From: Botryllus schlosseri
Lineage: Eukaryota
Direction: 5' to 3'
Length of the DNA: 64,000 nucleotides
Assembly (NCBI GenBank): GCA_051294905.1
Contig: CM119371.1
Location: 31,002,001-31,066,000, forward strand
The notes under the pieces were generated by a model, which saw nothing but the letters and a program-made list of their open reading frames with translations, was not told the origin of the DNA and searched no databases. Shown here piece after piece: positions 1-47,823 of the stretch. Position numbers and translations under genes: made by a program. The stretch's first letter is position 1. Each line of letters starts with the position of its first letter.

Positions 1-175
1 ACCGAGACAATTCATAGACAAGGTCATTGTAATGAGGTGCTAATAGATTTTTGTCATCTTAAATGGCTGTGATTGACACAACTTTAAACCACCTTGGAAA
101 CTATTCATATGTATTCTATCAACCCGTGTGCCTTGAATAGTGCATGCATGGTAATGACATTTATATTCATTATAG

Positions 176-390
176 GATCCGAAGAATGTCAACCCGACGA
201 TGAAGTGCGATACTCTTCAGAAAAAGTGGACAATCCATTTCGTTTGGGAATCTGTCGATGGACTAATGAGTTTCCATCATACAGTGGCGACATATTGCGT
301 TTTCAACATGAAGTTTGCGCCAGCGTCAGCGAGTTCATTGAACTTTTCGCAGATTTTCTTGCAAACATTCCAGATGTCACATACAGCTAA
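176..390 (+). CDS. Probable last coding exon of an unidentified plus-strand gene entering from the left of the window
   Basis: Acceptor-like ttatattcattatAG at 174-175, then an open frame GSEECQPDDEVRYSSEKVDNPFRLGICRWTNEF...LANIPDVTYS* with protein-like composition. No family recognised. Confidence 0.35.
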
Positions 391-3300
391 ATACATCTAA
401 CCACAGGGTATGTGTACATTAGTAGAGGTGAAAGGTCAATTTGAAGCATTATTAGGACATGGGTAGAGACATGGATGTCAACAGGTCTACATGGATGTCG
501 ACAAGTTATCATGGGCCTTTTCCATGTCAACATGACTCAGGTGGGACCAGGTCTAGACTATGGGTACACCCATGATTATTTTTTACAGTGTACGAAACAA
601 CATATACTTTAATCCTTCAAAATTCCGGACATTTAGGCATAATTTAGAATTTCCTCCCAGACGCTGTTTGAACGTTGAAATTTCAGGCATGACCGAGAAA
701 TTCCGGACGTAAGGCAACCCTATCCTAGACCAACGATCCGATGGGTGCGTCGTCCGAACTATTTTCAGAGGTTTCATTTGGAAATAACTCCTGAAATAAT
801 AGATATAGTCAATGATATATATACGATGATTGGAAACTCCAGTGAGCTCTGCGTTTGAGCGCGTCGCGAGTCATGCTTCACCAACGGTCTGAAATCGATG
901 TAAACAAACGGTTCGCTTCTTCAGGAAATGGCGTTAACGTAGCGAAAAGGTTTTTATCGAGACCTCTGTTGCAAGTGAAATGTGTTCATACTGTACAGGT
1001 TTTGGCCAATACCAGTAGCATGGCGAAACTGATGTACCAGTGTGCCTACGTGATGAACATTGTGATCGGAGGTGGTCTCGCCGTATCAAATAACGGGAGG
1101 GGGTGATACTTCATAGTACGAGGTAGAGTTGGAATCAGGTCACTATCTTCAAGTCATTGCAAATTTTTAATCAAGCCCCGAAGTAATTTCTAAATTTTTC
1201 AAGTCAATTCAGCCGGGTTCTAAAACTATCTCTGAAGTCAGGCCTTCTGAAGTTGTGAAAGTAGGCAAAACCTACTTGAGGATATCGCAAAAAGCATCAC
1301 GTTTTTGAAGTAATAATAGTCATTATTCCTTTGTTACGGAGATTCATCTTGTGATTCGAATGCTCCTATATACAATTGAATAAATAGAAATATTTTTGTT
1401 TGATACTTATCAGGAGTAGAGAGTCTTTATTTCATCCAACCAAAATACATAACAAACGGCAGTGATGGTGGTACAGAAAATATGCTTGCAAGTAATCGTC
1501 AGCAGCTTGTAGATACAGTATATACAATTGACTAACGAACTAATACAATGTATGGTCTAACTCTTTTCTTCATACTACTCGAGTTCTTTTCGGACTGTTC
1601 ATTTTCTGCTTCAACAAGTCGATCCAATTGACTAACAAACGTCTGCAAAATCTGGCCTTTACCTACTTTTTCAAACTACTTCATGAGTACAATTCCCCAT
1701 GATATGATGGTATATCTTATAAGTGTATGTGTGCGCAAGAGCGACCCACAATAAGTAGAAAGTCCCTGCCACTGTCCATTTAAGGTTTTATAGACTTGTT
1801 GACAGCCAATGATACATAAATGATTGTTCACAGCATAGACTTTGTATATTCATTTAATTGTAATATTGTCCATGTCCAGTTTGTCAACTCTTACAACCAT
1901 AGTTGACTTGCAAGATGGTGACTTCGAAGAATGGGACGGAATAGAGACTGTCCAACAATCCCCTTCACTCAACAAATTCCCGCACTTACACATCACCATT
2001 TATTCCCTCAACGGTCGCGGTGATCATGGAAGAAGTTGACAGAATCCAAGCGTCGTAACAATGTGTCATCGGATGGGTATTACAGAAGCAGGATTTTGAA
2101 CAGCTTGAAAACCTCACGTCTTCATGGACTCCTAAATGCGCTGATACTAGTCGCGACTAAATTTCAATGAGGATACCAACACCATATTATCATTGAGAAT
2201 TTTATACAGGGTATAGATATTTCATTTACTATAACACTTGAAAACTGCATAAACAACTTTTGTTATTATGTCAGACTTGTTGTCATCTAAATTCAGTATA
2301 ACAAGAACCAAAATCCTAGTCAACGAAAAGCATTTAAGTAGGCTTACCGGATTTGGAGAATTTATCTCCGGTTTTGCAAGTTGCAAATTTCTGAAAAAGT
2401 GTCCTCTTTTTTGATTTCCAAAATATGGTAAGAATAATTTAATTGAAGTCAATGTGTAGCAAAAAGGGATTTTCATGTTTATGCAAATTACAATATCAGA
2501 TATACCTATGTTTAAGCCATTCGATAAATGTACTGTCTGCATCTATTTTTGTTGTAATTCATGAAACTGTTCTGTGCTATTATTAACAATCGAATAACTG
2601 CGCCTAATAGTTGATACGTCAATGTTTCTTGTCACGTAACAAAAATATATATTCTCAAATGTTATTTATTCGAGCTTCGTTATTCTCTCTTAATGACAAT
2701 AACAGGACTGCAGTTGGATTGTAGAGCAGCGATTTTACATAATGTTGAGCATCGGAGGGCATTGAAGCATCAAGTACCATGGCATTTGAACACTAGGATG
2801 TTTCAAGCCTCTTTGGAAATCAATTATTCTTTAAAAATTACCATATTGCAGGTGCGGCCAGATTTCCTGATCAGGCTAAAAATGATTTCAATAACAGATC
2901 AAGACTCAATCTCTTGGTGATAATGAGGTAGTCTGCTCGATGGATTGGCAAAAATGTCCGTATCAAATTTATCATTGTTGTTGTTGTCTTGTCCATTTGA
3001 TAAACTTCCCTGCTGACGAATTTCGTTGCTATTTCTGGGGCATAAGAATATCTCCAGTTTTGCAGTAGTGGGATATATTTTTCCAGCGAGTACAAGTGAA
3101 GCAATATTATCTGTAATGGAATATGGCTTTAAATGGCTGTTGTAGCTGAACTTGGTAGTCATATTCACACGGCACAAAAATTATCCACAGATTGCATTGT
3201 AGTATCCATCTCCTCGCCTCTCGCACTCGAATAATACGCATAGTCTTTCAGCACAACTATTTTTCTCTGCATCAATTGATCAATCCAATCCGGCACCAAT

Positions 3301-4077
3301 TGTAATTTTCATTTTGACTACAATCTTTGGAAATATCTCAATGTCTGAAGCAGAGTGGAACATGACATAGTTGCTTCTCATGGACTGCCTGGCATGTCAG
3401 AATCCCATAAGATAATGATTTTCCCTTTTATTAAGATCCATAAATTCTATTCAACTTCCTCGCGGTTGTGGGTTACTTTGCGGCTGTTTCAATACACGAA
3501 CAATCCTTTCTTGCAAGTTACAATGGACTATAATTTATAATAAATGTTAATAACGGTCCTGTAAAAAATTTATGCATTAGACATTTACAGAATGGGAATT
3601 TGTTATGTCACAGTTTTGCCAGTCAACTACAATTGAAATCAAGGTAAATATTCAAGTCGTTTTACCTCATATGCAATATATATGATGAGCAATGAGCATA
3701 TTCAAAAGAGAGATTTTGCATTGGAGGATTGTGGAGTTACATTGCTGAAGAAATAACCTGGGTATTTCAGGCAGCAGTACATACAAATGCAAGTTGATGC
3801 TCATGCTCAGGTCATAAAGCGTGATGCAAATAGCGAAAAGTTATGAAGGTTTTACATAAAATACCATAGACGTACACACTATACAATGATGCAGGTTACA
3901 ATATCATTTCCCAACCTTTCAATGAATAAGACGCCATAGAACGTTGGTGGCAAATGTATAAATACTCTGATTGGCACAATCCTTCCAGCTATGAATCTTA
4001 ACGAGTACTCCTTGCTAATTTTTAGGGTTTACAGGCAATTCATGGGGAACACATCACAACGTGTAGTTTATATAGAA

Positions 4078-4240
4078 CAGTGGTTCTTAAAATATGGGTC
4101 GCGACCCAAACATGGAAAAATCTGAAAAATTAGCAGAGTGTTAACACAAAAAATACATATTTTTATGTTTGAGATTTGGGTCAGGAGGTGATCATGAAAC
4201 TCAGATTTGGGTCGCGCTCAAAAAAGTTTAAGAACCGCTG
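4078..4240. mobile_element. hAT (Buster/Charlie-type) MITE
   Basis: TIRs CAGTGGTTCTTAAA...TTTAAGAACCGCTG; perfect 8-bp TSD ATATAGAA (4070-4077 / 4241-4248) fitting the nnnTAnnn pattern. Confidence 0.9.
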
Positions 4241-5518
4241 ATATAGAAGAAGTACCAAAACGTTTACCAGGTATGAAAGATTCCCGGTGTGAAAGATTCA
4301 ACTATTGAGAGGAGTACGACAGATCACGCCAGGTCGATGTGAACAATACCAGCTATGGAGTGAATATAAGTGCATTGTTTTGCCGATTGAATATTGTTTG
4401 GTACAACGCCGATTCTCATCATTGATGTAGATTTAACGGCCTGACCCGGTAAAAAGTTATATATGTTAGCTTTTTAGAAATCAGTACAATGATAGTTTTC
4501 GGTTAGTTCCGATTTTACATTGTTAAGGTACAATCAATATATTGATAGCGGGTAAAAGATATATATGCAGTAGCATATAGCTTATGGGGTATTTCGAATA
4601 GCATGTAGTACATGATGCCTAGAGCTGTTGACTTTCTTCAATCCGGGCATAGACAACTATAGAAAAGTCTCAACTTTTCCAGGTTAGAATCATAGACCTA
4701 AACCGTTTTCACGAATTATATTACAATAATATTACTGGCGTTTCGCTCTAATTTAGTGAAATTAGACACCTAGAATTATCTAGTTGTCCAAGTCGCTTAA
4801 AACATCTGAATTACTGGTACCTATACTTATATCATGATATTCATGCTTGAATTTTCTAGGTATATAAGTCATAAAGATGCATACCAGTAGAACACTGATT
4901 CGTACGTTACCTGCCTTCGTACTGGCATCCTGATTTTATAAAAGTTGGTGCAAGAATGGACATTTTCAATTTGATGTTGATTAATGGAGCAAAATTTGAT
5001 ATTTGAGTGCAATTATACCACTAATCCAGTGACAAGATTAATAATCGTTGAAACCAAACGCAGCTTGTTTATGTTGGCCCAGAGAATCTGGCTTGTCATA
5101 CCATATTGATATAATATGGTCACAGTAAGATGATATTTTGGACTATTTTACAGGAACTTTCCAACATTTGATTTGATATGTCCGGTAAAACAGTTGTTAT
5201 TCTGCTTTCGAATAATACCTAAATTGCTGGTTTCAATGTTAACATTGTTTGTCTAAGGCTGTGAAGGCAATTTCTTTTTTATGTTAAATGTTTGTTTTTT
5301 TATGGTGTTCATGGTGGTGGTTCGACTACACTGATCATTTTACACCAGGCCGGCTCTTCTTGTTATTATTCCGTATCTGCCCGATTACCAGTGAATTCGG
5401 ATGCACAAACTCGGCACTTGGTGAATTCGGCCGTGGTAGCGGTACCCGGTACCGGTCACCATGATTGGTTACTGGACTGTTTGCTGGTGAACTTGGCACT
5501 TTGAGCGGTTGTCAATGT

Positions 5519-6093
5519 TGTACGGGGGTCATGGCATGCGTAGATCACACAGTTGTGGCGTGATTAGATCACAGATTGCGTAACCGCGGGAAATAACGCG
5601 ACGCTCTTCACTTGGTGAACTCGGCCCTTGGAGGAATTGGCACTAGAACACCTTCGCATTAGAAATGCATTTAATATGAATGAACAGTATCAAAAAGGAA
5701 ATTTAAACGTGTCGTGGCTGGCGGTAGAACTCGTAATCTTGGGTCCTTCAACCCTGTTATCGAGACAACCTAACCCAGAGTGGAATCGTCTCTCCAACCC
5801 ATAAAATAGTTTATTTTGACGTGATCATGCGAAACATTTGTTGATGAGAAACACTGGCTTGTGATCGATAAATGAAGAAGCGCCACTTGATCTTCCACAG
5901 CTCCGATCTTACATACAACGTCAAGATCCATCTTCTCAAAAATTACACGACACAGGCCCGTCACTCACGCCATCGATTCCAAGAAGACTGCGCGTGGTCT
6001 GTATATGAGCGCTGCGTCATTTCCCGTGGCTACGCAATCCGTGATCTATTCACGCCGTGACTGCGTGATCTACGGGTGCCCTGACCTCCTTAC
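5519..6093. mobile_element. MITE-like element with ~85-bp imperfect inverted repeats
   Basis: 5519-5606 (tgtacgggggtcatggc..gtagatcac..gattgcgtaaccgcgggaaat) is the reverse complement of 6007-6093 (atttcccgtggctacgcaatc..gtgatctac..gccctgacctccttaca). TSD not resolved. Confidence 0.65.
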
Positions 6094-6229
6094 ATTTACA
6101 AGTTTGACGAATCACTTGATAATACTATTATTAGTTATTAATTCATATCAATAGCTGAAAATACACTTCATTACAAGATTCCCCGAGGGCTGAATTCACC
6201 AAGTGGCGAGTTTATCGGCAACCTTCTGC

Positions 6230-6385
6230 CCACTTATAGCACGGCCCAATCCTAGGCTTTTTAAGACATGGCTATGGGGATCAGATGGCGAGGAGGAGCT
6301 TAGATAAACGGCCAACACTTCGGTACGAATTATGGAGTCGACGTGTCAGGCTCGAACTCGCAATTCATTGGTGTTTAGCTATAAT
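6230..6385 (-). mobile_element. Partial tRNA-derived SINE, same family as 53850-54083
   Basis: Shares acttatagcacggccc..ctaggctttt..aagaca..agatggcgaggaggagc..ccaacactt..agtcgac with the 53850-54083 copy. Confidence 0.65.
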
Positions 6386-7046
6386 GGAACGTACCATTAC
6401 GTTACCTCGCCATACATTGTAAAATGGGACCGTAGCATTTGGCATTTCGTGTGGCAATTGACTTTTATGTGGAAAATTCTGTTCGTTTTAGAACTTATCC
6501 GAAACTTTTATTCCGCCATAGATTGTATATGATAAAACGATATCGTAATTGATCCTAGAAGAATTCGAAAGCCATTCACCACAAAGGAGGATTTAAAGAA
6601 GTTTGATGACATTTTGAATGAAAGCAACAGCCTTTGCAAGATATGTGGTATGATGAATCTGTTTTGTTATTTTTAAATACTTAGTTGTGCCGAGAGCAGA
6701 CGTTATATATAAACGTAAGATGTGGAAGCTATCAAGGTGTTATGTTTATAATTTTTAAAAATTCAGTCAGTCAAAGTGGACGATCGTATTGCATTGTATA
6801 TTTCGGCTTATTTTAGCATCTTCGAGATGCAACTCTGAACGTAGACGGTTATGAACAGTCAACTAATTCTGTTCTTATATTGACATATCACACATTTGCA
6901 CTCGTACCGTTGGCGGCGAAAATATTGGTCAGTCAGCAAGAAGCATCATGAATAAGGTTGCCAGTCTGGTGTAATTATAGCAGAGTCTGAAAGAATGGGA
7001 AATACGCTATGATCAACCTCCATTTGAACAAGATCACATATAGTAA

Positions 7047-31389: not shown

Positions 31390-31703
31390 CTGTATTCTTT
31401 TTTCCAGGCACCCCGTAATTATCGACAAAAGCTCGTCGTTGATGTTGCAGTTGGACAAATCCAGGCACTTCAGACTTTCACTCCTAGCTGTAAGCGATCC
31501 GACAATGTGAGCCTCATCACGACTCAATGAGATGCCAGATGCATCGATATCGGAAATTCTTCTCATAAGATCGTCGTCTTCTGATTCATAGATTGCTGTA
31601 TACAGTTCCATGCCAATGTATTTTTCTTCAAATCCAGTCACTTTCTCGAGTTGCAAATGAATCGATCGAGAAAGAAATCGTTGTCTAACCGACCGATATG
31701 AGA
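31390..31703 (-). CDS. NLR-like gene, helical-domain/first LRR exon
   Basis: Acceptor atttatttgcctgacAG, donor CAG|GTGAGT; phase 1 joins the NACHT exon in frame; contains ELYTAIYESED and the RI-like LRR SLKCLDLSNCNINDELLSII. Confidence 0.9.
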
Positions 31704-31972
31704 CTGTCAGGCAAATAAATGCACCTCATTACATGTTATTACGAGTGAATAAAGAGAAAGCGTAGTGTGCAGAGAGGTACAGCCATGTGGATAGATTAAC
31801 GGCATCATTGACTCGCATGTCTGTTTTTGGTTACTCAATGAATCCATGACGCCATGGCATTGCTGTAAAATATTTAGTTTTGCGGTATCGCTAAACTTTC
31901 CAATTGGGCGTAGCAGGTTTTTCGGCTAAGAGCGCAATTTAGTGTATGCCGACCAAGGATGTACTCAGGAAA

Positions 31973-32443: not shown

Positions 32444-32790
32444 AGTAGTATAGTAGATCAGTCGCTATTTGCCTGGGGTTCTTATGGGCCCTCTCGCACG
32501 GTGCCTCGAAACTCGTGTTGGCACGGTGACCCTTTTCAATCCCCTTCCGCCAGCACGTGCCATTGTGCCTTATGGAGTCTCTCACACGGTAGCCCTTTTC
32601 GGAAAGGGATATCTCGCACGGTGCCCCGAAACTCGTGTTGGCACGGTAACCCTTTTCGGTATAGGGATCTCCCGCACGGTGCCTCGAAACTCGTGTTGGC
32701 ACGGTAACCCTTTTCGGTATAGGGATCTCTCACATGGTGCCTCGAAAACTGTTGGTGAGCCGTACTTTCGGGTATATGCCTCCACTCGGA
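32444..32790 (+). mobile_element. Isolated Polinton/Maverick-like terminus related to the 33378-41672 element
   Basis: Starts AGTAGTATA, then cttatgggccc and ~56-bp tandem units ctcgcacggtgcctcgaaactcgtgttggcacggt(g/a)accctttt, which parallel the ctcgaccggtgccgcgaaaactcgtgttgaaccggtgaccctttt units of the inner TIR. Confidence 0.7.
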
Positions 32791-33377
32791 CAATATATCC
32801 GGGTAGATTCAGACTGTGTGCCGCCGCCAGACGGACTGGGGCATTTTTTTGCAACACAGATATCATATATGGGATGTCTTCTGTCACTCGGACATCATGT
32901 CTGGGGTATGTTCGGACTGTGTTGCCACCAGGACAAATATCTGGTGTAGATTCGGACTGTGATCTGTCACTCGGACATCATATCTGGGGTATATTCTGCC
33001 TATGTGGCAACCCAGACATCATGTCAGGTTATGTTTGGGCTATCTTGGCACTGGGACATGATGTCTGGGGTATGTTCGCTCCATCACTCCGCCATCATAT
33101 CTGGGGTCTGCTCGGACCATGTTGCCAATCAGACATCATACCATGTTTTCATTGTGTTCTGCTCTTCGGACATCATATCTGGGGTTGATTCGGACTGCCA
33201 TGTTGTCTGAATGGCAAGTGCAGTCCGAATCTATCTCAGAAATGATGCCCGGGTGGCACAGCACGGTCCTAACATACCAAACATGTGATGTCCTAGTGAT
33301 GTAACATTGTGCAAACATATACCAGAGACATGATTTCCTTGTAGCAGTATAGTCCAAACATACCCCAGGCAGGTATA

Positions 33378-35625
33378 AATAGTATATACGATCGCTGGCA
33401 CATCACCATTGGCTCTTATGGGCCCGCTCGACCAGTGCCGCGAAAACTCGTGTTGAACCGGTGACCCTTTTGACCCCCCTTGCGGTGGTGACTCGCCTTT
33501 TCAGAACCCCCTTCCGCTCGACCGGTGCCATGTGTTCTTATGCGTGCGGTCGTGAATCGCCCTTTCGGATATAGCCATCTCTCGACCGGTGACCCTTTTC
33601 GGTATATGCATCGCTCAACCGGTGCTAGTATAGCCATGTCTCGACCGGTAACCCTTTTCGGCATATGAATCGCTCAACCGGTTTCGCGGTGGTAATTCGT
33701 ACTTTCGGGTATATGCATCTCTCGACCGGTGTTGAATATGTATCAAGTAAATAGTCATGTGAATGAATCTTTGTTAATGTGTATATCGTGAAAACTCGTG
33801 GTCGTCACTCGCCTTTTTTGCTATAGGCGGTGGCGGTGATTCGCCTGTCGTGTATTCTTACGGGGTCTGTGGTGACTCGCCATGTGTTCTTATGGGTGCG
33901 GCCGTGATTCGCCCTTTCAGGTATAGCTCGTGGCGGTGATTCGCCGTGAAAACTCGTGGTCGTGACTAGCCTTTTTTGCTATTGGCGGTGGCGGTGATTC
34001 GCCTGTCATGTATTCTCACGGGATCTCTGGTGATGTGCCATTGTTTCTTATGGGCGCGGTCGTGATTCGTACTTTCGAGTATAGGCATCTCTCGCGCGGT
34101 GTTGAATATGTACGAGTCACCAACAATAACCGCACGAACGGAAACGTGGCTTGTTGTGCAAGAGGATTTACGCAGTGCGTGCGACCTATATTTCGAATGA
34201 CCTGCGCGCTGAATTGTTTCCCATGCAGCTGTGTGCTACTATCGATTATTACCCTAATCCATTCAGTGCGAAATAGTTTGCTAAATCTAGGAATCAGTCG
34301 CATGGTGTTACTTTAGTAATTAGTTTACCACAGAACCGGCGTAGACGGTGATTCGAATATCAGCGATAACCACGCTCACAAACTAACAGTTCGAAAAGGT
34401 GTGAAATAGTTTGCTAAATCTGTCACATGGTAATGTTTTGGTAATTAGTTTGTCCCAGAGCCGGCGTAGACGGCGATTCGAATACCAACAATAACCACGC
34501 TCACAAACTAACACTTCAAATAGGTGTGAAATATATAACAAACCCCACGATCACTCACAAGATAACACCTAAGACATAGCCATTTTTCGCGTCTTACCAT
34601 TACTTACATCCCAATCGCTACAGTTTAATATGTCGATGGTTTTTACTATCAAGTAATAAGTAATGAATAACCGAACCGGCGCAGACTGTGATTCGAAAAC
34701 CAACAATTTGTCACTTGCACGCGATAGCTATATGTTTTGACACTTCGCACCGTTTTCACATCTATAGAATCAATACCAACTATAATTCCACAAGAATCAA
34801 GAATCACAAGTATGTGCATTATACAGTTATTGTCTTTATTAAGTTGAAATCAAACTCTTAACAAAAACACCCATCTTATCACTCGTCAACTCTATCATGA
34901 AAATCCTCGAGTCCTTATCATCAAAAATGTTATACCGCGGCGTCGGAATCCATTCGTGGGATGTACTAAAGGTAAATCCAGATAATCCAAAATGAAATAT
35001 TTTGACTTTGACATAGTCTTAATCGAAATATATTGACAAACATGACTACCAACTTTAATCCAGTCACATTTCAAGATCATACTTTGAAACAATCCTTGAA
35101 ACTTACAACTCTATTCACGACTGAGTTTTCCGTTTACCAAATAAAGTTTCAGTAAATACTATCGCGATATTTTAATGTGTTACTACACACAATAGAATCA
35201 ATCAATGAAATAGCACCTGTTGTAAATATTTCCAACTTGACAACCACTTGCGCATACCGCGATCGACTTGTGACGCGATGAGTTAAATAGGAATATTTCA
35301 ATCTATTTGTCGAAACCTTGAACAAACTAGCAGGTTATTTTTTGTTGTTGTAATCGAGTGAACGGAAATAGTATTACGCCTCAACATTTTAACATCTTCC
35401 CATACACAAAAGAGTAAAATACAAAAAAGTCTTGTCAAGTCAATCCGTTTGTAACTTACCCAACCAAAGTAAAAAGTATCCTTATGAAAAGTAGACAAGA
35501 CTACGCGAGTAATCACCACAATCCAAAATCCATAGCAAGTTCGGTTGTACTCATAGTCCACCAAATCGTATTTTTGTTCAACTTCAAAAGTCGTTACTAT
35601 TCTGTAAGATAAAGTAATTACTACT
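33378..35625. repeat. Left terminal inverted repeat (2248 bp) with internal tandem sub-repeats
   Basis: GC-rich short repeats (ctcgaccggt, gtgattcgcc) at 33420-34110; two ~130-bp copies at 34270-34535; ORF-like AT-rich part at 34840-35625. Confidence 0.9.
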
Positions 35626-38344
35626 CGGTATATTTTATGAACCAAAGTAAATACTACTCGGTGTGTGGTTTGAGATTAACATATTACATTTGAGTATACG
35701 AGATTTGAATGTCTGACCAACGTAGTTGAGAATTCATTTCTTACAATCGAACGCAGGCGTTATATTGAAAATTTCCACGATGTAAACATATGAATTGACA
35801 CACTGAGTTTGACATATGAGATTCTGTAATAGTCGATCATGACTTGATTATTAAATTATGATATTATTAGACCGGGTTGTGTTGAAGGTTATTACGATAC
35901 CAACAAACTTTTCAGAAACATTGTTATTAACATATCGATTTGTGAAACTAGATTAACATGTCTGAAATGTTTTGATTGGGAAGATTAACCCGTGTTCGTA
36001 AAAACCACGCAGCGTATTGTGGACATCAGGAAATATTTTACAAATGTAATTGTCTCCAGTAACCAAGACTAAAGATGAAACAACAATTTCCTTTGTTGAA
36101 CAATAACCGGTACAATACTTTATCATCGTAATCTGCGGTGAGAATTGAAACACTTTCGCACATTACCCGGGTCAAGATATCACACTAGGTGAATTGACAT
36201 ACCGCCGCTTGATTAATACCTAATCCGTTCGCACCATTTCGCATACTTTGATCATTACAAAAGTAAATTGGAATATGTTTCCTAGATGCATTCAATTCAG
36301 TTAGAAATGTCTGGTGCACAACAATCGTAACATCATGGAAGTACTTGCTACACTGTTATTCACTTAACGTGTTTTGCATTGTTGTTCATTTGTAGTATTG
36401 ATTGAAATTGTTTTTGAACCCCCAAATAATAATTCCGACATGAAACCAAGCCGCTGAAAGTCGTTACCATCACAACGAAACAATTTGTACGATGTTCGCC
36501 AAATGTATCCTATAGTTAGGTGTACTAGAATTATTTGTCTAACGCATACACCGACAATGCAATCGAAAATTTTTCCGTTGTCATTCGCTAAAGTAAATGT
36601 CATCACAATACTCTGTCACTAAAAGACGTTACTTGGACGTGCTTGAATTCTAGACATAGTTCTGATTTACCCAACACAAGACCCAACGACAACCCTAGTT
36701 TACAATCGTGAACACATATCCAAAATATCGCACACTCCGCTATTCCTAAAGTACAAACACCCGATACAAAATATTACTTGTTGTGTTGTTGCGGCATCAT
36801 CTTCACAATATCACCCTCAATACAAACGATGTTTATGTGTAACATGCTATTGATTTGATTCACACTCACCTGACGGAAGAGGATTTACTCAATCTTTACA
36901 TAACAATTATTGACCAACATCACATCACCGGATTGTATCTGTTTTGCTGGATACGAGTTATGTTAGTTTAACAGTAAACAAATTTCACCCTCTTGGATTT
37001 TGAACTCAATGCGTTAGCAGTCATTCAATATTTTGTTGTGTCAACTAGTTACTAGGTATGTTACCCCACAACTCTTACAAAAGTACGAAGGATATTAACA
37101 TCGCACTAAGTAAATAACTTTACTCGATATTCTCGCATTACGAAACTAAAGAATGGTTGGTTAGACTCTACAAACTGTTTCGATATCTCACGACCTTCAT
37201 TGTCTGAATGGGTGTTCATGTATCTTAATAATCAAATTGTTCAACACAGAACTAGTACTAACAGAAACATCAGAGTTGTTTACACAAAAGTTTGTATGTG
37301 TACAGTATGTGAATACCATGTGTAAGTCCAAAACAATTGCGGTATCCATCCGAGTTTAGTTAACACAAATTTATTACAACGGAGCCACGTAAACTTTCGC
37401 GAAAGAAAAGCATACTCATTTCTGGATGGTTCTATCAATGCCATAGCAATAGATCAGCTACTCCAACAAAAGAGTGCATATGTATTCTAGTGGCGGTCCC
37501 TAAATCATACACACGAAACTATCTACTTTTGCTAACGAAAAGTGCTGAGTCATCACATAATCGCTCTCACAATAAAACAGCTAGTAGATATTATCATTCA
37601 AAATATTCGTAACCCTTTACACACCAGTGACAAATCATACAACGAATATGTTTTGTGGGTCGAATTGTTGTTCAGTGTCAAGTCTACCTGTTGAAACTTA
37701 CATTAAAACAACACAGTCACAATTCAATTAAAACCACGAATCTATTTTCATTTCGTCACAAACTGTCACATACAGAAAAATAAATTTTCTTTCCCCAACA
37801 CATACTTGTAACCAATCGCTTTCATTAAACACACAACTTCATAAAAGTATTTACTTTCTACAACATAGACTGTCCGATGTAGTCAAGAAATATTTTTATT
37901 AATCAAAATCATCGATTTCTGTTCACAGTGTTAGTGTGTGCATGTCATACCTGTGGGCCCCGTATTAAAATGGACACGACACGACTGAATGTAAGGGGGG
38001 TAGAAGTCTATCGCATCGATTTACATGTGGTCTTCGCTACGGTTTCAAAAAACGAATCATCTATTTTGCATTGGTCGAGACCGAGCGAATCAGCCACATG
38101 TATTCGCGGTAATGATTTTGCTTGTCATATGCGAATGATAGGGTTGCTACTCCGACAAATCAAATCAACATACAACAATCTTCTGACGATCATAATAGCA
38201 ATTTCATTCTTCACCCCTACGTAACTGTATACGCACGAAAAGTATATTGTACAACTCGGCAACCACGTTTAACAAGACCAATCACACTACGAGCGTTGAA
38301 CACAAGATACCTACCCAAGTCAAAATATCACTCTGGTTTGGTCA

Positions 38345-38745
38345 ACTGACGTTTACCTGTGTAAAATTATCATTTTCACTTGGAGGTCCACCGTTACCTA
38401 ACTAAAATACCATTGTCCTTTGGAGATTTATCGTTTAGTCAGTGTAACAAACCCCTTTTCACCTGGAAATCTATTTTTGCTCTGGATAACACACCTTTTT
38501 CACTTGGAAATATATTTTTTTTCTGGGTAACAAACCTTTTTCACTTGGAAATATATTTTTTTCCCTGAGCAACAAACCATTTTCACTGAGCAACAAACCA
38601 TTTTCACCTGGCGGGTCGTCGTTTACCTGAGTAAAAATATCATTTTCCTTTGGAGATCCGGCGTTTACCCGGTGTAACAATACATTTTCTCTTGGTCATC
38701 TAGCTTTTCCTAGAGTAACAAAACCATTTTCATTTTGAAATCTGA
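38345..38745. repeat. Degenerate ~42-bp (21-bp sub-unit) tandem array inside the element
   Basis: Recurring aacaaaccattttcac(t/c)tgga motif spaced about 41-43 bp apart. Confidence 0.75.
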
Positions 38746-39415
38746 CAAACACACCGGCCAATTTGGTATTTGCTGTATTGACGATAGTTTGAAATAGATT
38801 ACAACGAACAGTGACGGAAATATACACGACTACCGGTTTCAGAGTATACCTCCATCAGTCGTATCACATCAATATCATCAGTTAACCACATACAATATGC
38901 TCTTGTACCCAGAAATGCATGTTTTGGAAAATTGGACAATAGGCTTCGAGAGTTCTGTGATGTCCGGGTTCGTGCTTTGGATTTTCCAGAGTCAAAATGT
39001 CTGAATAAAACACCTCCTTGACGATGGTTGGTATGTGGATAACGGTGTTCGGAAAACGGTTGGATTCATCTCACACATCGCGATAACAATTCCAGATCGA
39101 GTTTTCCTCCCACATGTTTACTATATTGTGTCTTTATTGGTCAATGTATGTCTCGACATTCAGTTTGAAATCGGAAACTCTAATAAAGTATGCAAACGGA
39201 TCCGGATATCTACTCTGAATCGATAAACCAATGAACAATATTCAAAGTAAATATGTTACACCCTGTGTTTCCACGAAAAAATACCATCCAGACATACGTC
39301 GCGCTTGTTTGCCCACACCAGTATACGCGTAAATGGAGGTGTGTGACATTGCATGCAATGTGTTGGTATACAAACATCGATCCACAGACATTATCATAGC
39401 CGGTAGTTTTGATGC

Positions 39416-41672
39416 AGTAGTAATTACTTTATCTTACAGAATAGTAACGACTTTTGAAGTTGAACAAAAATACGATTTGGTGGACTATGAGTACAACCGA
39501 ACTTGCTATGGATTTTGGATTGTGGTGATTACTCGCGTAGTCTTGTCTACTTTTCATAAGGATACTTTTTGTTTTGGTTGGGTAAGTTACAAACGGATTG
39601 ACTTGACAAGGCTTTTTTGTATTTTACGCTTTTGTGTATGGGAAGATGTTAAAATGTTGAGGCGTAATACTATTTCCGTTTACTCGATTACAACAACAAA
39701 AAATAACCTGCTAGTTTGTTCAAGGTTTCGACAAATAGATTGAAATATTCCTATTGAACTCATCGCGTCACAAGTCGATCGCGGTATGCACAAGTGGTTG
39801 TCAAGTTAGAAATATTTACAACAGGTGCTATTCCATTGATTGATTCTATTGTGTGTAGTAACACATTAAAATATCGCGATAGTATTTACTGAAACTCTAT
39901 TTGGTAAACGGAAAACTCAGTCGTGAATAGAGTTATAAGTTTCAAGGATTGTTTCAAAGTATGATCTTGAAATGTGACTGGATCAAAGTTGGTAGTCATG
40001 TTTGTCAATATATTTCGATTCAGACTATGTCAAAGTCAAAATATTTCATTATGGATTATCTGGATTTACCTTTAGTACATCCCACGAATGGATTCCGACG
40101 CCGCGCTATAACATTTTTGATGATAAGGACTCGAGGATTTTCATGATAGAGTTGACGAGTGATAAGATGGGTGTTTTTGTTAAGAGTTTGATTTAAAGTT
40201 AATAAAGACAATAACATTATAATGCACATACTTGTGATTCTTGATTCTTGTGGAATAATAGTTGGTATTGATTCTATAGATGTGAAAACGGTGCGAAGTG
40301 TCAAAACATATAGCGATCGCGTGCAAGTGACAAATTGTTGGTTTTCGAATCACAATCTGCGCCGGTTCGGTTATTCATTACTTATTACTTGATAGTAAAA
40401 TCCATCGACATATTAAACTGTAGCGATTGGGATGTAAGTAATGGTAAGAAGCGAAAAATGGCTATGACTTAGGTGTTATCTTGTGAGTGATCGTGGGGTT
40501 TGTTTTATATTTCACACCTATTTGAAGTGTTAGTTTGTGAGCGTGGTTATTGTTGGTATTCGATTCGCCGTCTACGCCGGCTCTGGGACAAACTAATAAC
40601 CAAAACATTACCATGTGACAGATTTAGCAAACTATTTCACACCTTTTCGAACTGTTAGTTTGTGAGCGTGGTTATTGCTGACATTCGAATCACCGTCTAC
40701 GCTGGTTCTGTGGTAAACTAATTACTAAAGTAACACCATGCGACTGATTCCTAGATTTCGCAAACTATTTCGCACTGAATGGATTAGTGTAATATTCGAT
40801 AGTAGCACACAGCTGCATGGGAAACAATTCAGCGCGCAGGTCATTCGAAATATAGGTCGCACGCACTGCGTAAATCCTCTTGCACAACAAGCCACGTTTC
40901 CGTTTGTGCGGTTATTGTTGGTGACTCGTCCATATTCAACACCGCGCGAGAGATGCCTATACTCGAAAGTACGAATCACGACCGCACCCATAAGAAACAA
41001 TGGCACATCACCAGAGATCCCGTAAGAATACATGACAGGCGAATCACCGCCACCGCCTATAGCAAAAAAGGCAAGTCACGACCACGAGTTTTCACGGCGA
41101 ATCACCGCCACGAGCTATACCTGAAAGGGCGAATCACGGCCGCACCCATAAGAACACATGGCGAGTCACCACAGAACCCGTACGAATACACGACAGACGA
41201 ATCACCGCCACCGCCTATAGCAAAAAAGGCGAGTCACGACCACGAGTTTTCACGATATACACATTAACAAAGATTCATTCACATGACTATTTACTTGATA
41301 CATATTCAACACCGGTCGAGAGATGCATATACCCGAAAATACGAATTACCACCGCGACACCGGTTGAGCGATTCATATACCGAAAAGGGTTACCGGTCGA
41401 GAGATGGCTATACTAGCACCGGTTGAGCGACGCATATACAGGAAAGGGTCACCGGTCGAGAGATGGCTACATCCGAAAGGGCGATTCGCGACCGCACGCA
41501 TAAGAACACATGGCACCGGTCGAGCGGAAGGGGGTTCTGAAAAGGCGAGTCACCACCGCAAGGGAAGGGGGGGGGGTCAAAAGGGTCACCGGTTCAACAC
41601 GAGTTTTCGCGGCACCGGTCGAGCGGGCCCATAAGAGCCAATGGCGATGTGCCAGCGATCGTATATACTACT
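39416..41672. repeat. Right terminal inverted repeat (2257 bp)
   Basis: Reverse complement of 33378-35625; begins AGTAGT (39416) and ends ACTACT (41672). Confidence 0.9.
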
Positions 41673-43942
41673 GGCATACACGAGTGGCGGAACACAGTTA
41701 GAAATATGCCTACCCCAGACATGGTGTCTCAGTGCCAGAACAGTCCACACATAACCTGTGCTGGTGTCCGGCTCTCTATTACAGGCAGAATATACCCCAG
41801 TCATGATAGAGTGGCGGATCACAGTCCGAATCTACACCATATATGATGTCCGAATGGCGGACCACACAGCGAACACACCCAAGATATGATGTCCTAGTGG
41901 CAACAAAGCCCGAGCATATCCCAGACTGTCCGGTCGCTCGAATGCAATATCTGTTCACGAAGCGACGAGCAATCTCTATCTGCGTATGGGCACTCAACCG
42001 TTCATCACGCATTGCGCATCTATCCATCGGTTAGTCATCAATAAATCGACTCTCCGCGCTGGCACGTTATCTGGGCAAGATGATTTCACCTCGAGTCAAC
42101 AGAATGACTACTGAAAAATCATGTGGCACCATCATGAATATATTCAATTAGGAATTAAACCCTCAAATTCTCACTCTCTACTACCATAGTTGCGAAAAAT
42201 GGTCGCATCCTTTACATTCTGGGTTGATTTAAATTCAGAAGTTTCACCTGTCCGCCAAATATTTTTGGAAATTTTACCGGTCGTCGAGATGGAAAACGTT
42301 GAGAACCGCTGCTCTAGAGAGCCACCTTACTTCTGCATAAAGTAAAATATGTTGATGTTGCGCACCCGGGATATCACACAAAGCCGAAAAAGCCTTGAAT
42401 GTAACGCTCGGCTACGTATATAACACTGGTAAGTATACACGACTTTTGCGCCAGGACTTCTTTGGTTCTATAACACATATTTGAGGGGCGCTGAATACGA
42501 ATCTGACGTTATTTTTGCTCCATCACGTCACGTTTTTGAGATATATATGTGGAATATTTTTACTTTTTCGGGGAACTCAAGTATATTTTGACTACTTGCA
42601 GTACTTACTGAAGTGGTAATGTTTGACAAATACTTGAACATCTACCTGAACTGTAATCTGGATGAACTAATTACATTTGCAATCTGGTTTTTGTGAGGTA
42701 GAAAGTAGTTCAGGTATAATATTGCATCACTATCATGAGTTAAATTGTCAGAAGAAAAGTGTAAAATAGCCTCACGGTGCCTGAGTATATTATTTCGAAG
42801 ATTATATCCATGTGTGGTGTCATTATAGTCATTTTGCGTTATATGCGGTGATACATCATGTGATTTCGTATGTAGCCAACCCCGACTAACCGTTAAAAGT
42901 ATGCGACCACCCTCCCCCGATCAAATATGCTTAGATATTTACAGACTTTTAGTAATTCCCAGACCTTTCATTTCGTCTTCCACATGAAGTAGATTTGACA
43001 TGTCTTAGAAATGACTACTTCTACTTGTAATTGAGTAGTAATGTAAGGCGTTACATGTGCTACTTGAGTTGCAACGCTGATCAATTCGACCGACTATAGT
43101 TCATAGCAAACTATTACGACAAATCAGAAACCATCAAAAATGTAAATCTTTTTTATTTGGAACTAGCTTTTAATCATGCAACACACTAACAAAAAGCCTC
43201 GAAATTAAGCGATGTTATTCTCTGGCTCTGTTCCAGCATGGAACACGTGGTATTTGTTGTAGTCCACAGTATCTCCCATGTCGAGCGAGATCGACTGTCC
43301 TAGAACCGATGCATATTTATTTCTATTGTGAAGTAACATGTACTTCAGGTTTCGTGTTGAGCTGTTAGTAAGCAGTCTCCATTCGACCGATTGTCTATAG
43401 CAGACAATGTAAAGAATCCCGTCATATAATGGCACCTCACCAATAGAAAAACAGTTCAGAAATAGCTTTCCTCGATTCCGAAAATATGACAATATATTGG
43501 AACTGGAAAAGAAGAATTAGCATGGTAAGTACAGGTGGAGATTGATGATGATAAATTATTTCAATTTAACATGATAAGCATTTTTTTCTTTGAAAAAACA
43601 GACATCCTTTTTTTTCAATGTTTCAAAACAAGCTTAAAGGGCCTCATATTCGGATTATGCACCAGAGTGAACAATCATCTTCTACATAATATACCAACAA
43701 TAAAATGTTTATTTTTGCAAACTTTTACGTTTTACGAAAGAGCAGAGTCCTGTCACAAAATGCATTGACCGATTAAGTCTGCAGGACGGATGTAGAAAGA
43801 CAGATAACGTATGGAACAATCTTTAAACGAAGTGTGGTATAAAAATATGATAGCTTCTACCGACTAAAAATAGTTGCACCCGCATATAAATTTATGGATC
43901 AAAAAGAGGTCCTGATCGAAAAATAAAGGGAGCCACTGGTTT

Positions 43943-44559: not shown

Positions 44560-45560
44560 ATTCACACTGCGCCGTTCAGAACTTCGGTCAATTCAGGAGA
44601 CATTTTTTGGCACATAAATTTTCCCGGTGAAAAATGCAATGTGTAACGAGCGGATCTGTGTTTGCCAGTTTTTTAATTTTCCTAGTTACACCCGAATAGC
44701 ATTCCGTCATGTTAGGAGCACCGACACAACAAACACCGACGTATTTTCCCCAATGTAAACCTTGTTCTTGGACATAAGTATCGAGAGATCGAAATAATTC
44801 TGAACTGGTCGTTCGTCCAGGTAGTTGCAGGGAACAATGAAATTCGGCAATAATACTGCCTTCGTGATCATATCGAACAAAGCAAGCAAGTATCACACAA
44901 TTACTCAAATCCGTGGATTCGTCAAGTTGTACAGCGAAATATTGCGAATTCTTTACTTGCTCAATAACTTGTTGTTCGACATCAACTACCATATTAACTA
45001 TTCTTTTTTCAATTGGATCATTTGATAGTGGTATGGCTTTAAGTTTGTTAGCTAGTTCCAGACCCAAAATCTCTTTCACAGCTGCTTACAGGCAATGTTT
45101 TATCAAATCTTTTCCAATAGTAAAAGGCTTTTTCGCTTGGCTAACTAGGAGGGCAATTATACAAGATGATATGAGAAGATGTCATCTTTTGTAAATCAAT
45201 TCTTTCATTTTCAACTTTGTACAGTAGGCTTTTAAAATAAGAAGCAGGCTTTTCAACGAGGTCGGCATGCAGTGAGTGAAAATGTCGAGTGAGCTTTGAA
45301 GGCTTCATTGCGTCGTTTGGAAGTATTTTGTTACAAACCAAGCACATGGAAAGTGATGTTTCTTGGAGCAATAGAAAATCCGTGCTCCAAGTACTTACTA
45401 TCGCATTGCCTTGTGAAGTGGACTTTTCGCTTTTTGCTTGCTGGATAAGCCATATCGGCATTGCCTAACCGCTTCACGCTAGGTGGTAAATCTGAAGTGC
45501 ACCCTTTTTCTGTGCTGGTAGACCCTTTAACTTCAATTTCACTGCTGGACTTCACTCGAA
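44560..45560 (-). pseudogene. Frameshifted, 3'-truncated hAT Buster-family transposase (ZBED5/SCAND3-like)
   Basis: RQCDSKYLEHGF, BED finger CLVCNKILPNDAMKPSKLTRHFHSLH, AKKPFTIG, IPLSNDPIEKRI, catalytic FAVQLDESTD and CxxH motif VTHCIFHRENL, spread over several frames; C-terminal half absent. Confidence 0.92.
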
Positions 45561-46401: not shown

Positions 46402-47823
46402 CTTCATGGACGTTATCCGGCTTTTTGTCGTAAAGGAGGCCGCATACAAATCTCCGGACGACCGACCACCGCTCTTTGTGCATGTGGTTCGAGATGAAGC
46501 TCATGAACTTTGGAAGCGTCATTTCGACTACAAAGCCCGCTGCGAAGAATTCTTGCAGACTTTGATGACAGAAAAAGAAAATGAAACTTCCATCCAACAG
46601 ATTGCAACTGTGGAGGTTCTTTCCTGGAACTTTCATCATGAGATCTTGAACTTCTTCTTTTGAAAGTCCAAACTTCTTCAAATCATTTTCAGAGAATGTC
46701 ACTCTCCCTTCTTTCATGCCACGATATGCCATCGCCTTCAATTTATTGATAACTCCGGCGATAGCATCAGGCTTTCTAATGTTTTTCACGCTGCTTAGAG
46801 TGGATATGATTTTTTTGTAGAGTCCTGTGACCGTCGCGGGAGGAGGTTCGTCCGGATTATTGGCCATTATCACAGCGGTCAATACCAGAAAAACGGGAAT
46901 GGAAACTAAATTGATTAGCCTTGGTGACAGTTGTTCTATTTTCTTCCATGCTTCATCCCCATGCTGACGTAACAGAAACACAAAAAGCTTCTTTGCGTCA
47001 TCTAGGGTCAGACCAGAAAGTGTGATGATGTCGGCCGGTCGCGCTTCCGCGGGTAAATCCGAGACAAAGAATTCTCGGGAAGAGATGACGATCTTTGAAT
47101 CACCGAGTAGATTACGTGAGAGTATATTGTACATGATCGTTGCTGCCACGGCTCGAGTATAGGGATTTATTCTCTTGTCGCCATCTCTGTTTATTTTCCA
47201 CGTAGCCTGATCCAAGCCGTCGAAAAATAAAACTGCTTCTGATTGATGTTCGAGCAACCACTTATAAGCATGATCCTCGTCGTTCTCATTCTGAAAGAGG
47301 CCACCGAAAAGAAATTTAGATGGTCGGATTAATCCATCATCTCGCATGTCCTTTATTTCTATATAACATATTAATTTGTACTTCAGCGGTGAGCGGCTGG
47401 CAATGTCCTCGAGAGTTTTTTTCGCGATTCTGCGCATGAGAGTGGTTTTCCCAGATCCCGCAGACGCAACTATGGCGGTGATAGAACGTTCTTCGATGAT
47501 AGCTTTCTGAAAGACTCCATCTAGCTCGATGAATTTGTTGTCGTCAACTTTTTGTCGGAGGAATCCGAACTCCTTTCTGAATTGATTTTTCACAACCCCT
47601 TCCTTTCGCCAAAGGAAGAACTTTCTTTTTCTTGCTACTTCCATTTCGTGAACCTCTTCATAATTTCCTTTGAAATATTCTGACTTGGTGACCCTTCTCA
47701 TCTGTGGATGCACTTGGAAATCAGGTCTGTTGAGGTCATCGACGCCGATGTCATCGAGAATTCTGTCTGCCGTCTTCCGGGACGTATTGTCGTTTATGCA
47801 TTTGATCAGGGCTAATGGATCTG
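46402..47823 (-). CDS. NLR-like gene, large NACHT NTPase exon
   Basis: Walker A ASAGSGKTT, Walker B VLFFDGLDQ, sensor-1 IVISSR, IPVFL, winged-helix FFFCHQSLQEFFAA. The frame is open upstream of the listed ORF to a NAGNAG acceptor (ttcCAG|CAG, exon start 47823 or 47820); donor GAAG|GTTAG at 46401. Confidence 0.95.

Follow-up and report, generated by a model that had tools for sequence, protein, structure and literature searches.

How a genome comes to hold DNA that begins and ends like a Polinton, carries no recognizable gene in between and consists largely of its own inverted copy is the question raised by an 8295-nucleotide (nt) element of Botryllus schlosseri. The element lies at positions 33378–41672 of a 64,000-nt stretch of the forward strand (assembly GCA_051294905.1, contig CM119371.1, positions 31,002,001 to 31,066,000), which is referred to here as the window and whose numbering is used throughout. 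A preliminary description made from the sequence had proposed a gene-poor, non-autonomous Polinton/Maverick-like element, located in an intron of an NLR gene and replicated and integrated in trans, with two inverted arms of about 2.25 kilobases (kb) around a unique core of 3790 base pairs (bp). We find that the element belongs to a family of about 600 mostly much larger palindromes, of which it appears to be an internally deleted copy, and that the family is likely to be a gene-less Polinton/Maverick derivative for which gene-bearing Polintons would supply replication and integration.

The two arms are inverted and separated by 3790 nt (Table 1). Their global alignment contains 2192 matches, 56 mismatches and one 9-nt indel, corresponding to 97.5% identity; the mismatches are evenly distributed, and 27 of the 56 are transitions. 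Arm lengths, AGTAGT termini with a single change at the left tip, a 6-bp target-site duplication (TSD) with one mismatch and subterminal DNA rich in tandem repeats had all been read from the sequence previously and are confirmed here. The first 21 nt of the left arm also include a tip box that is conserved throughout the family. The AGTAGT hexamer at the inner border of the right arm was considered as an internal origin and rejected, as it occurs four times in 8295 nt, approximately the number expected by chance. An exact-pattern scan with a 26-nt stretch of the inverted repeat gave 0 matches in viral_contigs and 0 in metagenome_contigs.

The description of the element as gene-poor is borne out by domain searches that include the core. 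None of the 61 frames of at least 45 amino acids (aa) in positions 33378–39500 matches Pfam at an E value of 0.01 or better, be it an rve integrase, a capsid, a protease or a packaging ATPase, and the longest stop-to-stop frame in the element (among 48 of at least 60 aa) is 153 aa. The open reading frames (ORFs) of a gene-bearing Polinton from the same genome (L055, described below), including its integrase and excluding its capsid genes in the left 6.2 kb, have no tblastn match in the element, and its 1214-aa polymerase has none in either the element or the 18 family loci searched. Because genes for pPolB, rve, capsid, protease and ATPase are all without a match, the element does not belong to the autonomous Polinton class.

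Relatives were sought in the window's own genome (495.5 Mb in 219 contigs). The terminal 200 nt of the element match many places, mostly as inverted pairs 6–20 kb apart. A 21-nt tip pattern has 610 forward and 606 reverse matches, as opposed to 2 and 2 for the reversed control; tip pairs number roughly 600. Among the first 100 tips of the list, which are all from contig C1, 26 are unpaired and the others make up 37 pairs, with a median length of 14.5 kb and 28 of the 37 within 12.5–17 kb. Fourteen pairs were read in sequence (12 picked by likeness to the window end and two from the tip-pattern list), and all 14 have long inverted arms, ranging from 1.6 to 7.2 kb. A typical member is 13–16 kb long and has arms of 6.3–7.2 kb and a spacer of approximately 950 nt, with more than 90% of its length in inverted repeat. 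Some loci are long palindromes with added complexity (L040/41, L037–39 and L042/43), and others are shorter or rearranged, with arms of 1.6–2.4 kb (L046/47, L048 and L049). In six further C1 pairs, two inverted copies of a 72-nt marker from the inner arm lie about 1.1 kb from each other, exactly at the pair's midpoint, and the spacers are homologous between copies (75–95%); the palindromic layout is therefore inherited and not made anew at each locus. Among frames of at least 150 aa in the 14 pairs, none looks coding except for a nested insert in L046/47, which by eye resembles a non-LTR retroelement, and a 214-aa frame discussed below. In L051, 3 of 37 ORFs match Pfam, all under the curated cut-offs. 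At C1:16768420-16810257, the order of tips (+ + + - - -) indicates three family members nested within one another.

Both tips could be located in 13 of the pairs read (L044/45, the right tip of which was not located, was left out of the count), and the TSD is 6 bp in every case. It is perfect in 11 pairs (CTTGTT, CATGTA, TATGTC, TATGTT, CTTGTA, AATGCA, GACGTA, CACGAT, ACCGTC, GTCGTA and AACCAA) and matches at 5 of 6 positions in two, namely the window copy and L046/47, in which arm divergence is likewise greatest (97.5% and 97.4% identity). The tips of the other pairs counted read AGTAGT. In 10 of the 11 perfect duplications a pyrimidine followed by G occupies positions 3–4 (six TG, four CG and no CA), and eight of these ten have T at position 5, which suggests a target preference of NNYGTN in this small sample of 11 duplications. 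Such a TG/CA asymmetry would not be expected of an element whose arms are symmetric. The idea that duplication orientation follows spacer orientation was rejected: four spacers have the same orientation and two are inverted, without correlation.

Comparison with full-length members changes the interpretation of the core. Element nt 1–6040 (33378–39417) are collinear with one whole arm of full-length copies; in L051, nt 1893–3219, 3594–5923 and 5946–6952 match element nt 1363–2713, 2868–5210 and 5067–6040, respectively. Homology stops 55–70 nt short of the border between arm and spacer in L051, L035 and L053, and the sequence there jumps to the mirror arm, approximately 2.25 kb from the tip of that arm. 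The "core" is therefore the inner part of the left arm, the mirror image of which is gone together with the spacer. Its length is as previously given; its supposed uniqueness does not hold, as this is DNA repeated within the family, with homologues in the arms of other copies. Similarly, the statement that over half of the element is terminal inverted repeat (TIR) is accurate only for a private deletion derivative, the core being itself arm DNA and the parent family being more than 90% arm. Among 40 places scored (from 2628 first-look candidates), the joint is spanned at full length only at the window locus, with one-sided matches at all the rest; this makes the short form private, and there is no sign that it moved in this shape. 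The window copy is best read as a private, internally deleted copy of a 13–16 kb palindrome, in which the spacer and 4 kb of the inner right arm are missing. With arms 2.5% diverged it is an old insertion, and in this respect an ordinary decayed member of the family.

A single event with a 2-nt overlap would have removed the spacer and the inner 4 kb of the right arm, leaving 2.25-kb arms around a 3.79-kb loop. On balance, we think that this was a chromosomal deletion that took out the centre of an unstable palindrome, since long palindromes in chromosomes undergo asymmetric, centre-removing deletions and nothing at this private joint shows that the short form ever replicated. The short-arm, long-loop form could instead pre-date the insertion, having been produced outside the chromosome by a polymerase template switch 2.25 kb from the tip to give a copy-back type genome. 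An overlap as short as 2 nt is equally compatible with a template switch and with end joining, and further short rearranged forms are present in the family (L048, 8.5 kb with 1.6-kb arms, and L049, 9.1 kb); we regard this second origin as a tentative one that deserves to be kept in mind. Read as a chromosomal deletion, the window copy displays the fate of such a palindrome after insertion: loss of the centre, decay of the arms and decay of the duplication.

The preliminary description had also allowed for the inverted arm being an artefact of assembly. Palindromic chimeric long reads could produce one, since foldback chimeras can occur in long-read libraries, and among the contigs listed none bridges the internal joint at 39415/39416; the loose ends at 39414 have the sequence of full-length copies. 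Against such an origin stand hundreds of copies at different loci with matching tips and perfect 6-bp duplications, arm divergence of 0 to 2.6% that tracks duplication decay, and the existence of nested copies. Short contigs of run X1 furthermore cross both insertion joints without difference (33081–33444 and 41631–41804), support that is not independent because X1 may be the assembly's source sample. We find an artefact scarcely credible.

The same genome contains a gene-bearing Polinton, L055. It has a 1214-aa ORF for a protein-primed polymerase (PF03175, E value 5.5e-8, above the curated cut-off), a 359-aa ORF with an rve core (E value 2.7e-16) and a chromodomain, and a 215-aa P-loop ATPase that weakly matches the A32 type. 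Its right tip begins with AGTAGT and carries the box ATCG-S-TCG at positions 14–21, as in the palindrome family. Three hundred nt of this right end recur in inverted orientation, 99% identical, 18,263 bp leftward. The TIR is thus at least 300 nt; it is below roughly 850 nt, because the left end is absent among the matches to right-end nt 301–1200 or 1–2033. A search with the polymerase gave 435 first-look candidates in the genome, of which 38 (C1:5934715-5938356 among them) were scored at 92–95% amino-acid identity, 34 of the 38 without a stop codon. These polymerase copies represent a very large, young Polinton population. A PF03175 profile scan of the genome returned nothing, its first look being too coarse for this result to count as evidence.

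DNA at the ends is shared between L055 and the palindromes. Nucleotides 886–1795 of L031 are 90% identical over 939 nt to the right end of L055, and the L053 tip is 78% identical to that end over 295 nt. Right-end nt 394–2033 match 39 other scored places at 88–93% (2332 first-look candidates), and in L031, L033 and L050 both arms carry DNA that is found at the right end only of L055. Two tip subtypes can be distinguished: one comprises the window copy, L031 and L033 (the latter two being 86–91% identical to the window over 110 nt), while the other comprises L055, L051 and L053 and is 63% identical to the window. A Polinton sharing the termini of the element therefore exists insofar as L055 has the same kind of tip and shared right-end DNA, and its tip subtype differs from that of the window copy. 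The G-variant tip of L055 is rare (19 and 20 matches, pair sizes 7.8–29 kb) and therefore cannot serve as a general marker for copies that bear genes.

Table 1. Features of the window and of related loci in the same genome. Unprefixed positions refer to the window; L numbers denote loci compared.
Feature	Position	Strand	Size	Remarks
Left TSD, GGTATA	33372..33377			5/6 positions as in right copy
Left arm	33378..35625	+	2248 nt	tip AATAGT (one change vs AGTAGT)
Subterminal tandem repeats, both arms	33563..34533; mirrored 40508-41469			units of 59, 158 and 125 nt
So-called core	35626..39415	+		inner left arm of parental palindrome; collinear with full-length arms, e.g. L051 3594-6952; no protein domain
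Deletion or template-switch joint	39414..39417			2-nt overlap, AG
Right arm, outer part only	39416..41672	-	2257 nt	tip read inwards AGTAGT
Right TSD, GGCATA	41673..41678
Family copy	L031		arm 6347 nt, spacer 984 nt	arm identity 99.9%
Family copy	L033		arm 6349 nt, spacer 970 nt	arm identity 99.6%
Family copy	L035		arm 6402 nt, spacer 951 nt	arm identity 99.9%
Family copy	L051		arm 6889 nt, spacer 955 nt	arm identity 99.7%
Family copy	L053		arm 6344 nt, spacer 922 nt	arm identity 98.9-99.9%
Family copy	L044		arm 7239 nt, spacer 329 nt
Family copy	L050		arm 2874 nt, spacer about 180 nt
Gene-bearing Polinton (L055)	C1:5923771-5942033		18,263 bp	genes on minus strand
Arm frame	L031:1171-1812; L033:971-1612; L050:992-1621	-	210-214 aa	also mirrored copies
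Arm frame	L056:621-1272	+	210-214 aa
Next exon of host NLR gene	31402..31710	-		weak LRR signal; collinear with post-NACHT residues of ascidian NLRs
Older solo left end of another family member	32444..32782	+	~340 nt	73-77% identical to family ends
NACHT exon of host NLR gene	46427-47803	-		E value 8.4e-16; upstream of intron holding the element

The family is thus characterized by its structure, its copy number, 6-bp duplications, the lack of recognizable genes, and tips and right-end DNA in common with a gene-bearing Polinton. The duplications, the AGT tips and the shared ends support its interpretation as a non-autonomous Polinton derivative, in line with the preliminary proposal; given the missing genes and the shared ends, it probably depends on a helper Polinton for replication and integration in trans. 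Several observations weigh against this interpretation. The terminal 110 nt of the window copy and L055 are 63% identical (15 of 21 positions at the very tip), no direct blastn match exists between the two elements, and a gene-bearing element with the window's own tip subtype was not found. The inner 4.5–5 kb of the arms and the spacer match no L055 DNA or protein (left 6.2 kb of L055 excluded), and a simple snap-back of L055 therefore does not explain the arms. Finally, no extrachromosomal, protein-capped or packaged form was observed. The link between the window copy and Polintons runs via the tip box, the duplication length, and members that share the window tip subtype together with Polinton right-end DNA.

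If the Polinton-like ends were instead a coincidence or a capture, the family could consist of foldback-type cut-and-paste DNA transposons mobilized by a DDE transposase that has nothing to do with Polintons. The family shares very long inverted arms, internal tandem repeats, mostly non-coding copies and frequent internal rearrangement with foldback transposons (Drosophila FB, Galileo of the P superfamily and sea-urchin TU), its long, repeat-bearing arms resembling those of FB and Galileo in particular, and the inner arms lack Polinton homology in a comparison that covered L055 outside its left 6.2 kb. FB, P and Mutator elements, however, have TSDs of 7–10 bp and not 6 bp. The AGTAGT tips and tip box are common to the family and an element bearing polymerase and integrase, which is self-synthesizing, as are the 939 nt at 90% identity in the family arms and at its right end. 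A transposase ORF is present in none of the 14 pairs read, nor is a DDE transposase linked to any of them, a link that the preliminary description had named as grounds against its own proposal. A foldback family is accordingly improbable in our view.

The Polinton interpretation has to account for the identity of the arms. In eight of eight copies compared over a segment of approximately 1 kb, the nearest relative of each arm is the other arm of the same copy (98.8–100%, vs 76–97.6% between copies). The two copies whose duplications have decayed are also those with the least similar arms, so that arms evidently drift apart in the chromosome; since they are near-identical at insertion while lineages diverge elsewhere, an extrachromosomal step must regenerate or repair one arm from the other. 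This is comparable to retroelements, in which the two long terminal repeats are equalized in each cycle. We propose that the protein-primed polymerase of gene-bearing Polintons would start at the AGT repeat of either of the identical ends, that arm identity would arise or be maintained extrachromosomally, through snap-back synthesis or through mismatch repair after a displaced palindromic strand has folded into a hairpin, and that the rve integrase would make the 6-bp staggered insertion. Both snap-back and hairpin repair would be plausible for a protein-primed, strand-displacing polymerase, by analogy with adenovirus panhandles and defective genomes and with the snap-back and copy-back classes discussed below. 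The narrow size range (13–16 kb, vs 18.3 kb for the gene-bearing element) suggests a packaging limit, and the family may have originated by snap-back and may be packaged into capsids.

A bolder version of this scheme makes the family a true satellite or defective-interfering genome of active polintoviruses, with protein priming from two identical ends, regeneration or repair of the arms via a full-length hairpin in each cycle, packaging in helper capsids at 13–16 kb (approximately 70–90% of the 18.3-kb helper) and, in some lineages, a selected gene in both arms for an OB-fold protein of single-strand-binding type. We consider it rather unlikely that all of this applies. If it did, no earlier satellite of a Polinton would have been described, and the family would offer a natural readout of Polinton replication. 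The palindromes might alternatively be hairpin loci retained by the host, acting through double-stranded RNA to silence Polintons and not as their parasites: a perfect multi-kb hairpin that shares 0.4–1.8 kb with Polinton ends would, if transcribed, be expected to yield such RNA. The approximately 600 copies are dispersed and bear fresh duplications, which points to continuing transposition instead of retention at fixed loci, and the roles of hairpin RNA and Polinton parasite are in any case compatible; retention for silencing is very improbable as the explanation of the family. Among RNA data, 43 reads of the approximately 12.9 million in run X23 overlap the stretch, each in part only, which says nothing on expression either way.

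Maverick/Polinton elements are reportedly the subject of a 2006 account by Kapitonov and Jurka. The palindromes resemble them in having AGTAGT tips, a 6-bp duplication and TIRs, and in the tip box and right-end DNA shared with an element of the same genome that encodes pPolB and rve. Vertebrate Mavericks (Barreat and Katzourakis 2021, PMC8097293) are 12.7–24.6 kb in size; their ends carry (AGT)2 or (AG)3 motifs, their TIRs measure 46–1447 bp and their 6-bp duplications are perfect. The present family differs in lacking a pPolB, integrase, ATPase, protease or capsid gene, and in arms of 2.25 kb (window copy) and 6.3–7.2 kb (family) compared with the published TIR range.

Adenovirus, which forms panhandle intermediates, also gives rise to defective genomes with long inverted repeats, as reportedly described by Daniell and Mullenbach in 1978. 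Snap-back and copy-back genomes resemble the palindromes in that one end is present twice, inverted, giving two identical origins, and in that replication genes are lost and a helper is needed; in shape, full-length members correspond to snap-back genomes and the window copy to copy-back genomes. Snap-back and copy-back are classes of defective viral genomes (PMC13506859), and snapback genomes are also described for adeno-associated virus (PMC8235507). Unlike defective viral genomes, the palindromes sit in the chromosomes and are inherited, they transpose with target duplications, and they have split into lineages; moreover, their inner arm DNA is not recognizably helper DNA, and a replicating or packaged form was not observed. 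Tlr1 elements of Tetrahymena, which according to one source are sometimes regarded as non-autonomous polintons (PMC5499653), are likewise Polinton-related with long, complex inverted ends, but have many genes, in contrast to none or a single small OB-fold-like gene here. A coral polintovirus survey (PMC11131425) contains neither the word non-autonomous nor palindrome, and no description of gene-less palindromic Polinton derivatives was found in the literature searched (non-autonomous, palindromic, foldback and derived Polintons). What is new here is the link to a gene-bearing Polinton, the duplication census and the recognition of the window copy as a deletion form private to its locus.

Protein-primed replication and animal virions of Polintons/Mavericks have so far been largely inferred, and approximately 600 gene-less palindromes with Polinton tips bear on both. 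With arms that are identical at insertion and then decay, and with a narrow size range, the family's behaviour is that of a defective or satellite genome of a protein-primed virus. It makes testable whether single strands fold back during replication, whether packaging imposes a size limit and whether hyperparasites shape Polinton load.

One frame stands out in the otherwise gene-less family (Table 1). Both arms of some palindromic copies contain it, and the gene-bearing Polinton has it at its right end, split over two reading frames; the window copy lacks it. Nonsynonymous/synonymous ratios are 0.06–0.4. The 214-aa translation has no match in Pfam, and a database search gives one near-identical protein only. 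Its nearest ESM-Atlas clusters are RPA-like OB-fold nucleic-acid binders (scores 0.93–0.95), and an AlphaFold model was unusable (mean pLDDT 35). The frame may encode a single-strand-binding protein kept by part of the family.

The location of the element in an NLR intron, as previously proposed, is supported by collinear homology to ascidian NLR proteins. Post-NACHT residues of four of the six ascidian NLR query proteins align to 31402–31710 on the same strand as the NACHT exon (E values 2e-5 to 3e-7), and the element therefore sits in an intron of approximately 14.7 kb. The window copy thereby shows that introns of immune genes are among the insertion sites of such palindromes. Another, older end of the family stands alone 930 nt upstream of the element, with one mismatch to the commonest 21-nt tip and without a partner in the window. 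The element is flanked on both sides by a degenerate minisatellite with periods of approximately 40 and 83 nt (32880–33377 and 41684–41926), which had been thought to resume after the element in support of a single insertion. The array is present on both flanks, in mixed orientation: 32882–33072 is the reverse complement of 41711–41902 at 78%, while 33221–33326 matches 41822–41925 directly at 72%. A single insertion into a degenerate array fits this arrangement and is not proven by it. The minisatellite has no match in the family loci compared. The same NLR intron also holds a hAT-like transposase remnant on the minus strand (44591–45464), with matches to DUF4371 (E value 6.7e-6) and a Spin-doc-type zinc finger (E value 6.6e-4).

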